IMG/VR virus record: IMGVR_UViG_2690316318_000025
Location: 1-10,796 of that record
DNA: 10,796 nucleotides
Reading direction: 5' to 3' (one strand)
DNA from: a virus
Lineage: Duplodnaviria > Heunggongvirae > Uroviricota > Caudoviricetes
Positions 1-4,925 of the stretch are shown in pieces; the first letter of the stretch is position 1, and every line of letters begins with the position of its first letter. The position numbers were made by a program, and so were the translations under genes. Below the pieces are notes generated by a model. That model made no database searches. It saw only the letters and a program-made list of their open reading frames with translations, and was not told where the DNA came from.

Positions 1-456
1 CTATTCACCCGATGCAGCGCGCTTGCTGCTTTTCCGTAAGCACCGCTCACGACGCGCCAGAAAATTGTTTCGTTCTGGCTGGGAGTGGCTTTCACGGAAT
101 GCCGCCATCCACACGGTTGCAGCACGACGGTATAAGCCCCTGGACTCCAGTTCTTCAGCCTGGCGGGTCAGGCACAAAATCACCCGTGGATCGTTAGTGC
201 CGACATAGAAATTGCGCACAGGTCTGGTTTCTCGAACTGGTTGTGGTTCCGGTTCCTGCGCTCTCTCAGTCAGGCGCGGGAAATGTCTGCGTGTATCTCC
301 TTCACAACGGTGAGCCACACGCCCACTCTGACGTAACTTGCTTGCTGACTGCAGAACGCGCTGCCGTGAGTAACCTGCAAAAGCATCCGCAATGTCTCCG
401 GAAGTACACCCCGGATGGGCTTCAATGAATTTCTGAACTTCATTCAAAAGACTCAT
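1..456 (-). CDS. PerC-family-like transcriptional regulator with N-terminal HTH-like region (YfdN-like), ~151 aa
   Basis: ORF 1..462 (-). ATG at 456..454 is preceded by a GGGGG Shine-Dalgarno-like run; an alternative GTG at 462..460 overlaps the upstream stop as GTGA. Stop TAG at 3..1. The C-terminal motif LESRGLYRRAATVWMAAF resembles the PerC/Pch signature (GLWRRAA) as I recall it. Last gene of the leftward operon. Confidence 0.55.
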   Translation of the reverse strand: MSLLNEVQKFIEAHPGCTSGDIADAFAGYSRQRVLQSASKLRQSGRVAHRCEGDTRRHFPRLTERAQEPEPQPVRETRPVRNFYVGTNDPRVILCLTRQAEELESRGLYRRAATVWMAAFRESHSQPERNNFLARRERCLRKSSKRAASGE

Positions 457-458
457 GA

Positions 459-1277
459 TCACCCCCTGAATCCTGCCGGGATCTGGCTGTAGTCCACGTT
501 GTCGTAACTGGCTTTGAAGTACGGGTCCTCGCGTCTGGCTGCAGATACCGCAGGAACTTCCCAGGATTCTTCGAAATGACGATCCGGACCAAAGAACGTG
601 ACAGCCTGTTTCACAAATTGTGTGCCGCTGTTACCCATCGCAGATACCCAGCCCGCGTAGCGTTTCACACCTTCCAGCATGGTTTCGGGGTTTACCCCCT
701 CATTCAAACGGGCTTTCCAGGCTTTGAAGGCTGCAGATTTTGAATTGCCACCAGCACGTTTGGGATATACCAGCCATGCCTGCTCAAACTCCGGAGAGTA
801 TTCCGGTCGGTTTGAACGAACTCGCACGGACTCATCAACTGATGCACCAACAGCTATTGGTTCATTGACTGGTTCTTTGACTGGTTCAAAAGAGTGACTG
901 GTTCTGGGTGAATCTCCTGCACTACCCCCTGGTGCAACTCCTGCACTACCTGGTGAATTTGCTGCACCAGATAGTGAATTATTTGCACTACCCCCTAGTG
1001 AATCTCCTGCACCATCCAGATGAAGGAGATAGATATTACTTGAGTTACCTTTTTCACCTTTCCGGGTGACTTTTTTTACCAGCCCGGACTCACAAAGGGC
1101 CGCAATATGATTCATCACAGAACGTTTGCTAATCTCGCACTGGTCAGCAATATGCTGGTAGCTGGGCCAGCACTCACCCTGATCGCTGGCATTATCAGCC
1201 AGCTTGATCAGAACCAGTTTTCGCAATGGATTACCCACTCGAATTTTCATCGCTTTAACCATCAGCTCCATACTCAT
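459..1277 (-). CDS. Phage replication initiation protein (lambda O-like; N-terminal winged-helix/HTH domain, Gly/Ser/Ala-rich linker, C-terminal domain), 272 aa
   Basis: ORF 459..1277 (-). ATG at 1277..1275 with GGAGGT RBS 6 nt upstream. The N-terminal segment LRKLVLIKLADNASDQGECWPSYQHIADQCEISKRSVMNHIAALCESGLV is typical of the HTH domain of phage replication initiators. A low-complexity linker (GAGDSLGGSANNSLSGAANSPGSAGVAPGGSAGDSP) is encoded by DNA direct repeats. Start overlaps the stop of the upstream 78-aa gene (ATGA). Confidence 0.8.
   Translation of the reverse strand: MSMELMVKAMKIRVGNPLRKLVLIKLADNASDQGECWPSYQHIADQCEISKRSVMNHIAALCESGLVKKVTRKGEKGNSSNIYLLHLDGAGDSLGGSANNSLSGAANSPGSAGVAPGGSAGDSPRTSHSFEPVKEPVNEPIAVGASVDESVRVRSNRPEYSPEFEQAWLVYPKRAGGNSKSAAFKAWKARLNEGVNPETMLEGVKRYAGWVSAMGNSGTQFVKQAVTFFGPDRHFEESWEVPAVSAARREDPYFKASYDNVDYSQIPAGFRG
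858..1017. repeat. Iteron-like direct repeats inside the replication-initiator gene (candidate origin of replication)
   Basis: Three copies of TGACTGGTTC (866-875, 878-887, 895-904), followed by about five imperfect 18-22 bp direct repeats of the form RGTGAAT(C/T)TCCTGCAC(T/C)ACC between 908 and 1017. They lie in the interdomain linker of the O-like gene, the position of the iterons in phage lambda ori. Confidence 0.45.
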
Positions 1278-1510
1278 GCTGCACCTCCGAGATGCTTCAT
1301 GTTTTTTCCGGAGCGAAAGGCTATAAGCGGCATACTGACGCGGTAATTACGGCCCAGCGGTTCACAAACCACCTTCTGACATTCACGGTCAACCAGGCTA
1401 ACACGTAGAACATGCCCTGCAGGCGTGGTGTACCACTGCCCAACTGTAGGAATTGATGTTTTTTTACGCTGAAGTAAACGGCGAATATTGAGGCTCAACA
1501 GATTAAGCAT
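1274..1510 (-). CDS. Hypothetical small phage protein, 78 aa
   Basis: ORF 1274..1510 (-). ATG at 1510..1508 with GGAGGG RBS about 7 nt upstream. Its start overlaps the upstream gene by 8 nt and its stop overlaps the downstream O-like start (ATGA). No family recognised with confidence. Confidence 0.6.
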   Translation of the reverse strand: MLNLLSLNIRRLLQRKKTSIPTVGQWYTTPAGHVLRVSLVDRECQKVVCEPLGRNYRVSMPLIAFRSGKNMKHLGGAA

Positions 1511-2339
1511 GACGATGCCCTCCGCTGATATTCAGGAGACGGTGAATATGAAAATTAGCCTTATCCGCCAGACGAATACGTTCAGCCTGCAAGTTAAGAA
1601 GGGTTTCTACCAAAACCTGATGCGCCTGCGGATCCGAAAGAGTTACCTTGCGCAGAGCACGTAGTGCAGTTGTTACATAACTGAGTTTATGTAAGTCTTC
1701 ATCATTCAGACGAGTGAGGGCTGGGACAGTAGCCATGATGGCAGCCTCCTTGATCGGTGAAATACTTCCACCACCGGAAACGCCAATTTCGCTGGTGGTG
1801 AACTGAACGGGGTTGGCGTAACCGGTGATCAAGGAAACCGGCGCATCTTTCGATGCCCCCGCCCAGCCCACCATAACTTTGATGTGAGCAAATGCGGACG
1901 ATAAAAAAGACGCTGGCGCGTCATATATCGCCTTGATCAATTCCAGGACGCCAATCCCGGCACCCGCTTTATAAGGTGCCTGAACAGTGTAACGTCCCGG
2001 AATGGCAGAATCAATGTGCTGGTGGTCCTTCACACTCAACAAAATCACGCCTGAATTTCCACAAAGGACTAAAGCACTCATGCGGGTAGTCTTTGCGAAG
2101 ATAGATAACGCGCTGTGTTTCTGGCTCCCAACGAATAACATGAACATAAAGTCCTCTTCCGTCACGAAACCAGCGGTTAAGTTCCTGCACAACTCGCCCC
2201 CCACAGTCAGGTAAAGTTCTCTGTGGTTACTTACAGCCAGGTGATTTGGTAATCTGCATTCATGCCGTAACAACAGGTGTTCAGCGACACTGACCACCAG
2301 CTGTTGCGACAAACGGTTATTTGCCGTTAAACTGTTCAT
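1503..2339 (-). CDS. Hypothetical protein, 278 aa, function unknown (contains Gly-rich loops)
   Basis: ORF 1503..2339 (-). ATG at 2339..2337 with GGAGAA RBS upstream; ATGA overlap with the stop of the YdaT-like gene. Protein shows alternating hydrophobic strands and Gly-rich motifs (LVLCGNSGV, YKAGAGIGVLELIKAI, GVSGGGS) suggesting an alpha/beta nucleotide- or phosphate-binding fold, but no family could be assigned from sequence alone. Confidence 0.7.
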   Translation of the reverse strand: MNSLTANNRLSQQLVVSVAEHLLLRHECRLPNHLAVSNHRELYLTVGGELCRNLTAGFVTEEDFMFMLFVGSQKHSALSIFAKTTRMSALVLCGNSGVILLSVKDHQHIDSAIPGRYTVQAPYKAGAGIGVLELIKAIYDAPASFLSSAFAHIKVMVGWAGASKDAPVSLITGYANPVQFTTSEIGVSGGGSISPIKEAAIMATVPALTRLNDEDLHKLSYVTTALRALRKVTLSDPQAHQVLVETLLNLQAERIRLADKANFHIHRLLNISGGHRHA

Positions 2340-3934: not shown

Positions 3935-3968
3935 TTGACAATGTACCCTTGAGATACATAATGTATCT
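3935..3968 (+). promoter_or_regulatory. PL-like early-left promoter with overlapping operator palindrome
   Basis: -35 TTGACA (3935-3940), 16-17 bp spacer, -10 CATAAT/ATAATG (3957-3963). Perfect palindrome AGATACAT-A-ATGTATCT (3952..3968) overlaps the -10. Heptamer ATGTACC (3941-3947) is shared with the OR region. Confidence 0.55.
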
Positions 3969-4379
3969 AAAAGAAACATGCCGCAGGCAAGATTAAACAA
4001 AATTTGGTTGTAACACGGCGTATGGCACATGCGTCGTTAGCGGTCTGGGGACGTTAAAGGGGACAATCCACTCCTTGCTCGGGCAAACAAACCAGGTAGC
4101 CGGAATGTGCAAGTCAATGAGGATGCTGATAAGACGCCTAACCAGCGTGGCGATTCGGTTTGACGCCTGGGAAGAGACCAGGGTGCAACGATGAGGGCAT
4201 TTATGGAACCGCGACAAAGTGTGGTGCCGTAACTGGCTAAGTGCTCTCAGCGTTGTGGTAATCCGCGAAATGGCGCGGCGGTAAGTATGGCGGGGTTACT
4301 CTTTCCCCGTTGAGGACACCGGATTGTCAGGTTGACCATACGCCTGAGTGACAACCCCACCACAACAGCCACTGCTTTG

Positions 4380-4425
4380 GCGGTACCAGTTTGTACACTT
4401 GCTTCCAGCTGGTACCGCTCTTTTT
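4380..4425 (+). terminator. Terminator-like hairpin plus T-tract inside the PL leader (overlaps a boxA-like CGCTCTTTTTA)
   Basis: Ten-bp inverted repeat GCGGTACCAG (4380-4389) / CTGGTACCGC (4409-4418) with a 19-nt loop, followed by TCTTTTT (4419-4425). The sequence CGCTCTTTTTA (4417-4427) resembles a nut/rrn boxA element. Confidence 0.4.
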
Positions 4426-4562
4426 ACAAAACAGAGAAGAGCATCACCGGACGACGGGCTCATAACCCAATCCATCCGGGCGGCAGTCACCGCAGGTGTT
4501 CTTCTCTGTTTTGTGGAGAAACCAACCGACCTTGCAGGGTCGATATGATGAGGAGCAGCAAA

Positions 4563-4925
4563 ATGGCTAGCGAACGCAGTACTGATGTGCAGGCATTTAT
4601 CGGGGAGCTGGACGGCGGCGTATTTGAAACCAAAATCGGCGCAGTTCTCAGTGAAGTCGCTTCCGGTGTGATGAACACGAAAACCAAAGGTAAGGTCTCG
4701 CTCAACCTGGAAATCGAACCGTTTGATGAGAACCGTGTGAAAATAAAACACAAACTCTCATATGTTCGCCCGACTAACCGCGGGAAAATTTCCGAAGAAG
4801 ACACCACCGAAACGCCGATGTATGTCAATCGCGGTGGTCGCCTGACTATTCTGCAGGAAGACCAGGGACAATTACTGACTCTTGCCGGTGAACCTGACGG
4901 AAAACTCCGCGCAGCAGGTCATTAA
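4563..4925 (+). CDS. yfdP: YfdP-like prophage protein, 120 aa, function unknown
   Basis: ATG at 4563 with GAGGAG RBS 8 nt upstream. The upstream in-frame extension of track ORF 4332..4925 has no RBS and a non-protein-like composition. The 120-aa length and position directly upstream of yfdQ/yfdR-like genes match E. coli CPS-53 yfdP as I recall it; not verified by alignment. Confidence 0.65.
   Translation: MASERSTDVQAFIGELDGGVFETKIGAVLSEVASGVMNTKTKGKVSLNLEIEPFDENRVKIKHKLSYVRPTNRGKISEEDTTETPMYVNRGGRLTILQEDQGQLLTLAGEPDGKLRAAGH

Follow-up and report, generated by a model that had tools for sequence, protein, structure and literature searches.

Early region of an SfV-like phage

The window analysed here, the whole 10,796-nucleotide (nt) stretch of the viral record IMGVR_UViG_2690316318_000025, carries in positions 1-6579 an immunity block and a replication module, lying between a relative of yfdN on one side and relatives of yfdP, yfdQ and yfdR on the other, genes known from the prophage CPS-53 (KplE1) of Escherichia coli K-12. 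A preliminary description, covering positions 1-4925, had taken it for an undeleted version of CPS-53. Our analysis of positions 1-6579 leads us to another reading, which we hold with high confidence: this is the intact early region (immunity and replication) of an SfV-like lambdoid temperate phage, and CPS-53 is the deletion product of a mosaic relative. Positions in other loci are given with the labels L001 (CPS-53 region of K-12), L002 (e14 region of K-12), L003 (a near-identical complete prophage, NZ_OW967003), L004 (RM14516, NZ_CP043937) and L005 (2013C-3181, NZ_CP027312).

The segment orf32-orf40 of the Shigella flexneri phage SfV (U82619) matches window positions 5-3978 at 98.4% and 4378-6579 at 96.5% identity; phage mEp460 and Stx2c phages likewise match the early region, and L003, which has lysis, head and tail genes, carries a near-identical copy. 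At least 80% of window 1-4925 is present in 485 of 5426 complete E. coli genomes. As a sequence, this early region was already known, that of SfV having been published in 2002.

The immunity block

Positions 2303-3978 are homologous to the K-12 prophage e14 (blastn, 92.9% identity to L002 9859-8177) and comprise the first 36 nt of ymfM, followed by ymfL, ymfT and ymfK. The ymfK counterpart (3222-3896, plus strand) encodes a cI repressor of 224 amino acids with a LexA-like S24 self-cleavage domain (Pfam PF00717), 99.6% identical to e14 YmfK, and diverges from a cro gene on the minus strand (2931-3131) whose product, a YmfT/YdaS-like helix-turn-helix protein (YdaS/HTH_3-like), is 98.5% identical to e14 YmfT. 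Between the two genes lie three operator-like repeats of the TGTACC-N5-GATACA type (3137-3204; repeat search families D1 and D2), in the intergenic region that is annotated in SfV as 'putative operator region'. On the other side of cI, a putative terminator is followed by a pL-like promoter (together 3908-3979, plus strand; TTGACA-16-CATAAT at 3935-3962), which fits the consensus at 11 of 12 positions and is overlapped by two further operator-like copies (3941-3979). The repeats at the two early promoters are related units of 17-20 nt. The gene downstream of cro (2336-2899, minus strand, 187 amino acids) had been described as YdaT-like, a name we do not retain: its only Pfam match is Phage_CP76 (PF06892, E = 8.5e-15) and its PHROG is CII-like (phrog_101), which identifies it as YmfL (SfV orf36; 88.6% identical to e14 YmfL), and its position after a YdaS-like cro is analogous.

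A divergent S24 repressor and small helix-turn-helix cro, repeats at both early promoters and a CII-type gene downstream of cro are thus all present, as in lambdoid phages. By analogy with lambda, SfV and P1 immI, we infer the lambda layout, in which a single repressor governs two divergent early operons. cI would bind the repeats in the cro/cI intergenic region and at the pL-like promoter and so keep both operons off, and its RecA-stimulated self-cleavage, predicted from the S24 domain, would free them. The leftward operon would comprise cro, the CII-like ymfL, an open reading frame (ORF) of the DUF4222 family, a module of isrK and C4 RNA genes, two small coupled ORFs, the initiator gene with its internal iterons and yfdN, and the rightward operon yfdP-yfdQ-yfdR and beyond. 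The immunity specificity of the window is probably the same as that of e14, because repressor and Cro are so nearly identical, in which case K-12 strains carrying e14 should be immune to the window phage and e14-cured strains should not. The block is not missing from K-12 as a whole, as it is present in e14.

Comparison with K-12 CPS-53

The argW-dsdC prophage region of K-12 MG1655 was aligned to the window by blastn. Window 1-534 matches CPS-53 2,472,420-2,472,953 (L001 8421-8954) at 96.6% over 534 nt and contains yfdN and the last 76 nt of yfdO; the same boundary is found against L004. Window 4544-6577 matches 2,473,585-2,475,617 (L001 9586-11618) at 97.0% over 2034 nt and contains 19 nt upstream of yfdP, then yfdP, yfdQ, yfdR and the 5' part of yfdS. 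These homologies, like the family assignments, repeats and deletion endpoints in this work, are direct observations, and that of the flanks is far beyond chance. The gene order and lengths given in the preliminary description hold on the ORFs, with the PerC-family gene next to the initiator and a homology to K-12 yfdN-yfdO and yfdP-yfdR as proposed there. The flank proteins are 97.4-99.2% identical to those of K-12: the yfdN-like PerC-family regulator (1-462, minus strand, Pfam PF06069) at 97.4% and, on the plus strand, YfdP (4563-4925, 120 amino acids) at 99.2%, the DUF2303 protein YfdQ (4991-5815, 274 amino acids) at 98.5% and YfdR (5944-6480, 178 amino acids) at 97.8%. The yfdN-like gene has a TAG stop at window positions 1-3 where L003 and K-12 read GAG, a single base at the window edge that leaves the protein 11 residues shorter.

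Between the flanks the window has 4009 nt and K-12 only 631 nt (L001 8955-9585), and blastn found no match in the window for these 631 nt. In the K-12 region neither a repressor nor a cro gene lies between yfdO and yfdP, as had been stated, and KplE1 has been described (Panis et al. 2010, PMC2951348) as a prophage of 16 ORFs that is not SOS-inducible and lacks a repressor. The view of yfdO as a replication-protein fragment also proved right: it is a 3' fragment of an initiator gene, its product corresponding to the C-terminal 122 amino acids, and the adjoining 340 nt carry iterons spaced at 15 nt. Past the annotated yfdO, the K-12 sequence simply continues an allele whose full-length product has 313 amino acids, iterons included. 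This K-12-type initiator sequence occurs in ~2,000 genomes, nearly always as the full-length gene (~1,900 genomes).

The initiator of the window belongs to another allele. Its 272-amino-acid product shares only 31% amino acid identity with the 313-amino-acid protein, apart from the last 25 residues, which are identical, and on this comparison two initiator alleles meet at position 534/535, which is a boundary of the mosaic and not a deletion endpoint. The alignment against the argW-dsdC region, which the preliminary description had put forward as a check, thus returned homologous flanks and a shorter K-12 region as expected, but a left boundary of a different nature. This bears directly on the possibility that the window represents the progenitor state of the CPS-53 junction, from which K-12 arose by a deletion between yfdO and yfdP. 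The near-identity of the flanks and a K-12 sequence 3.4 kb shorter between them are what such a history would leave; the 631 nt that K-12 has retained, however, code for the C-terminal two-thirds of the product of another initiator allele, which has iterons of its own, and have no counterpart in the central 4 kb of the window, the module content differs, and L004 and L005 account for K-12 by a single deletion with no replacement. We therefore rejected the window as the direct progenitor, or an undeleted version, of CPS-53 and consider that history extremely improbable.

Prophages collinear with CPS-53

The prophages of RM14516 (L004) and 2013C-3181 (L005), both located at argU/intD, are collinear with CPS-53. 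L001 8122-9587 corresponds to L004 8168-9633 at 98.6%, and L001 9586-12241 to L004 12953-15608 at 97.7%, yfdS and yfdT included, so that K-12 differs from L004 by one gap of ~3.32 kb with the dinucleotide TA shared at the joint. Deleted from K-12 are the first 234 nt of the 313-amino-acid initiator gene, the DUF4222 gene, ymfL, cro, the operators and cI, as well as a minus-strand ORF of 171 amino acids and a ymfH-like ORF; yfdP keeps 19 nt of its upstream sequence. CPS-53 is derivable by deletion alone from L004 and from L005, but not from the window. CPS-53 most probably descends from a mosaic relative of the window phage with the other initiator allele, in which one deletion of ~3.32 kb, from nt 234 of the initiator gene to 19 nt upstream of yfdP, removed cI, cro, ymfL and the DNA-binding domain of the initiator.

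The two collinear prophages share with the window yfdN, the e14-type immunity block, the ymfH-like ORF and yfdP-yfdR. They differ in that the 313-amino-acid initiator gene directly follows the DUF4222 gene, with no C4 or isrK between them, and in the extra 171-amino-acid ORF after cI; unlike the window, they continue into yfdS-yfdT as K-12 does. The claim that the window identifies what K-12 lost is thus supported for cI, cro and ymfL, which are missing at the CPS-53 junction, but not for the initiator allele, the C4 and isrK genes and the two small coupled ORFs, which are not of the CPS-53 type. A 78-amino-acid ORF, the 'Ash'/orf37 ORF, C4 and isrK belong to the replication module of the SfV type and are absent from the prophages collinear with CPS-53, and since C4, isrK and the two small ORFs are absent from all such relatives, K-12 need never have had them.

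An alternative is that CPS-53 never had an immunity module at this place and that the joint was made by recombination between phages before or during lysogenisation. Lambdoid phages are mosaic, and the right endpoint lies at most 10 nt from a natural module boundary, the end of the ymfH-like ORF, where several right-hand partners occur. On the other hand, the joint cuts the initiator at codon 78 and leaves yfdP promoterless, neither of which fits a viable phage, the junction is found only in K-12-like genomes, and the same nucleotide ends many other deletions within prophages (see below). We regard this alternative as very unlikely.

Several observations nevertheless weigh against the reading of the window as an SfV-like early region and of CPS-53 as a mosaic relative's deletion product. 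L004 and L005 lie at argU/intD and not at argW; they are relatives collinear with CPS-53, which does not prove them to be its ancestors. Another repressor/cro pair is present in some relatives that share the flanks and, because at least two immunity types occur between these flanks, the immunity type of the CPS-53 ancestor is not readable from any single relative. The window itself has no integrase or attachment site, and the end of L003 adjoins a fragment of a dusA-like tRNA-dihydrouridine synthase gene, not argW. The right end of the window is unlike that of the closest complete prophage, its yfdN stops 11 codons early, and the regulation of this copy is read from sequence and analogy.

The replication module

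The window initiator (459-1277, minus strand, 272 amino acids) is of the SfV orf39 type, annotated in SfV as 'replication protein', and combines a winged-helix N-terminus (HTH_36, residues 17-67) with a DnaD-like C-terminus (DnaD_N, phrog_270). Iteron-like direct repeats lie within the gene (858-1012; repeat search families D1, D2 and D4) and are presumed, from their sequence, to be the origin. An N-terminal DNA-binding domain and iterons inside the coding sequence are shared with initiators of the lambda O type. No separate P-like or DnaC-like helicase loader was found downstream of the initiator gene, the next gene being the PerC-like yfdN; the C-terminus of the initiator itself matches DnaD-like loader PHROGs.

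Upstream of the initiator gene, where two unknown genes had been described, positions 1274-2339 hold three small ORFs and two RNA genes. The 78-amino-acid ORF (SfV orf38; 1274-1510, minus strand) belongs to phrog_1153, a family of unknown function. It is preceded on the same strand by a 77-amino-acid ORF (1503-1736) with a ribosome-binding site, AAGGAGG, at 1744-1750 and no Pfam match. The stop of the 77-amino-acid ORF overlaps the start of the 78-amino-acid ORF, whose own stop overlaps the initiator start, and these overlaps suggest translational coupling. It is likely that the true cistron in the 3' portion of the long 'Ash'/orf37 ORF (1503-2339, minus strand, 278 amino acids; Pfam Phage_ASH at 1710-1991) is the 77-amino-acid ORF. 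The third small ORF (2011-2190, minus strand, 59 amino acids) is of the DUF4222 family (Pfam PF13973).

Within the long ORF, also on the minus strand, lie a C4-type antisense RNA gene (1791-1878), which scores 82.3 bits with Rfam RF01695 (gathering score 45), and an isrK-like small RNA gene with terminator (1903-1979), which scores 64.2 bits with Rfam RF01394 (gathering score 50). An element that overlaps isrK and resembles the a1/b1 target of C4 scored 21 bits (RF03163), below its gathering score of 46.7, and a UUGGCG match to the C4 loop was noted by eye downstream. C4 and isrK coincide with the Phage_ASH match, with the 'ash family protein' call of PGAP and with the 'immunity region' of SfV. 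The Phage_ASH protein family may largely reflect conserved RNA sequence, and we infer that the 278-amino-acid ORF is at least partly an annotation laid over RNA genes; against a view of Ash as RNA only, the frame is open over 278 codons in the window and also through the same region in a relative, L025. In that relative, the start codon of the 77-amino-acid ORF opens an antirepressor-like ORF, as in P1 immI. C4 may act as a gate on the translation of those cistrons that lead into the replication gene.

Among SfV-type relatives, module boundaries fall at window position 1712, just inside the 77-amino-acid ORF, where others have the antirepressor, and at 1440, inside the 78-amino-acid ORF.

A recurrent breakpoint in the K-12-type initiator gene

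The left endpoint of the CPS-53 deletion recurs in related loci, outside the window, as seen in a catalogue of junctions from E. coli genomes and targeted IMG/VR scans. In e14, an initiator fragment, oweE, is fused to a terminase fragment (the fusion being ymfN; L002 10171-10404) and ends where CPS-53 yfdO (L001 8879-9587) begins. The two 'replication protein O' fragments of K-12 are thus exact 5' and 3' complements of one allele, and by alignment both belong to a single initiator allele distinct from that of the window. Complete copies of the e14 and CPS-53 junctions occur in 283 and 360 genomes, respectively, and each genome listed has the look of a K-12 derivative. Elsewhere the same allele is broken within the same four nucleotides and joined to a tail-fibre gene (WCHEC020031), a tail-fibre-assembly fragment (ETEC4069), a capsid gene and others.

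In all, 20 distinct junctions were catalogued, representing at least 20 independent deletions, 15 of them retaining the 5' part of the gene and five the 3' part. All but one cross over at the TA of CCAGGG-TA-ACCGC, nt 234-235 of the 313-amino-acid initiator gene (19/20). The hot-spot positions are L004 9632-9633, L001 9586-9587, L002 10404, near 7040 in L006 and L007, and, among the IMG/VR loci, those in L062, L076, L091, L131, L135 and L271-L283. Every junction with a mapped partner (18/18) is a simple direct-orientation deletion, of 1.2-15 kb. The intact partner sites have TA in 17 of 18 cases, C at +2 in 15 and G at -2 in 13, against a background of ~27%, and this GGnTAnC pattern is found on retained and lost sides alike. 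In a histogram of alignment end points over 8.6 kb, the TA is the only intragenic position with many unrelated partners; the remaining peaks fall at module boundaries between genes and involve related partners. Six nucleotides separate the TA from an outlying iteron-like 15-mer (nt 242-256), to the outside of which it lies, and this 15-mer in turn is 42 nt away from the main array of iterons.

One junction alone, that of e14, does not fall at the TA, and its terminase partner, intact in L061 near 13350 and in L003 near 11852, has its own GGTAACC 5 nt upstream of the crossover. This could be coincidence or a sign that the event took place in two steps.

The complementarity of oweE and yfdO raises the possibility that a single event carried a 3.3-kb immunity piece from CPS-53 to e14, the two fragments being halves of one gene copy. 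The e14 fragment stops at the very nucleotide where that of CPS-53 starts, e14 7069-10404 corresponds to L004 9633-12961, which is nearly exactly the piece that CPS-53 lacks, and both junctions were seen only in K-12-like genomes. However, 18 further independent junctions in other strains show the hot spot to be a general one; the two halves have different nearest relatives, without correlation (r = -0.04); the e14 ymfH-xisE joint lies at a gene end, where a natural module boundary would be expected; at their right end the two pieces share an overlap of several nucleotides; and we know of no mechanism for a cut-and-paste of this kind. A single translocation between CPS-53 and e14 was therefore rejected, and we give it next to no credence. 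As their nearest relatives differ, oweE and yfdO look like two independent hits at the hot spot.

At the homologous place, the SfV-type allele of the window reads AAAGGTAACTC, without the hot-spot site. No broken copy of the SfV-type initiator, and no intragenic position with unrelated partners, was found in ~128 loci, and an analogous hot spot in the window's own initiator was rejected on these grounds.

As to what breaks the gene, several candidates failed. A quasi-site of the Pin serine invertase was rejected, as the hot spot does not resemble the e14 pix sites (TTCTCCCAAACC-AA-CGTTT) and 18 of 18 events are deletions with no inversion seen. Plain restriction at GGTNACC was dismissed in view of the four such sites in L004, of which only that in the initiator collects unrelated partners, and breakage at a hairpin because the local DNA folds no better than shuffled sequences (z = -0.35). 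By eye, sequence or cut positions did not fit a likeness to the KplE1 att core, Dcm/Vsr, IS608 targeting of TTAC, RusA cutting 5' of CC or gyrase sites. Two candidates are left: an arrest of the fork, or a break, at the border of the initiator-iteron complex with subsequent repair through short homologies, and an enzyme making 2-nt staggered cuts at TA in a GGnTAnC context. We tentatively suggest, as a possibility that we rate below even chances, that these prophages are repeatedly disabled, either through site-specific breakage or an arrested fork at the margin of the phage origin or through an unrecognised TA-cutting enzyme, and that the truncation of yfdO is not random decay.

Bierne, Ehrlich and Michel reportedly described, in 1991, deletion hot spots at replication-arrest sites (terB). 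As there, one endpoint is fixed beside a protein-binding site, the other is variable and the junctions have short homologies. The present hot spot differs in the TA common to both directions of deletion and in the two-sided GGnTAnC preference of the partners, and arrest is here only hypothesised. If the suggestion were true, these phages would have a built-in route to prophage domestication, and its confirmation would mean that some prophages decay by a preferred, sequence-defined deletion beside the origin and not by random loss; the junctions, being detectable by the polymerase chain reaction, offer a simple experimental handle. The hot spot may be new: a literature search found no description of such a site, which is weak evidence of novelty.

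Remaining parts of the window

Between the pL-like promoter and the ymfH-like remnant lies a relatively GC-rich stretch of ~400 nt without a convincing ORF (3979-4377), unlike SfV, which has orf33 here, and unlike L004 with its 171-amino-acid ORF. An RNA or gene in this stretch was rejected, as it has no noteworthy Rfam match and a fold z-score of -1.44. The ymfH-like ORF that follows is represented by its 3' part (4378-4562, plus strand), in which the TA at 4544-4545 is the equivalent of the right endpoint of the CPS-53 deletion.

Positions 6471-10796 hold the remaining operon (called early-left), with a YfdS-like ORF that diverges after 42 residues, a weak methyltransferase match, an Ead/Ea22-like ORF, a DUF551 ORF, an Rv2179c-like 3'-5' exonuclease and a PrtN-like small protein (9534-9842). 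The window ends in a minus-strand ORF of 178 amino acids without Pfam match.

Comparison with known systems

For the window itself little changes, as early regions of the SfV type have been in the databases since 2002 and the absence of a repressor from KplE1 was already described. What is added is a map of the CPS-53 loss at the nucleotide level, the recognition that yfdO and oweE share one allele, and the finding of C4 and isrK beneath the 'Ash family protein' ORF.

The C4/isrK module recalls the immI locus of P1 and P7, where the C4 antisense RNA controls icd-ant, and the isrK locus of Gifsy-1. Both RNAs match at the Rfam level, a candidate target element that scores below its threshold is located upstream, and just downstream of C4 there is an ORF with a strong ribosome-binding site. 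In the window, unlike in immI, the downstream cistron is not an antirepressor gene but the 77-amino-acid ORF, followed by the 78-amino-acid ORF and the initiator gene. The placing of iterons inside that gene is shared with lambda O.

CPS-53 has in common with the window yfdN, the last 25 codons of yfdO, yfdP, yfdQ, yfdR and the 5' part of yfdS (96.6-97% DNA identity); it differs in its other initiator allele, truncated at nt 234, in having no cI, cro or ymfL, and in showing no trace of the C4/isrK module or of the two small ORFs. In e14, conversely, it is the immunity block ymfK-ymfT-ymfL that is shared, whereas the block is followed by ymfM and a 234-nt piece of the K-12-type initiator gene fused to a terminase fragment, and on its other side by ymfJ/ymfI/ymfH-xisE-intE in place of yfdP onward.

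The closest known system is SfV, which encodes homologues of YfdQRST (Noguchi and Katayama 2016, PMC4776307). It differs from the window in having orf33 at 3979-4377 and in diverging past position 6579; otherwise it has the same order of a yfdP-like orf32, cI, cro, orf36 (ymfL), orf37 ('immunity region'), orf38, orf39 ('replication protein') and the yfdN-like orf40.

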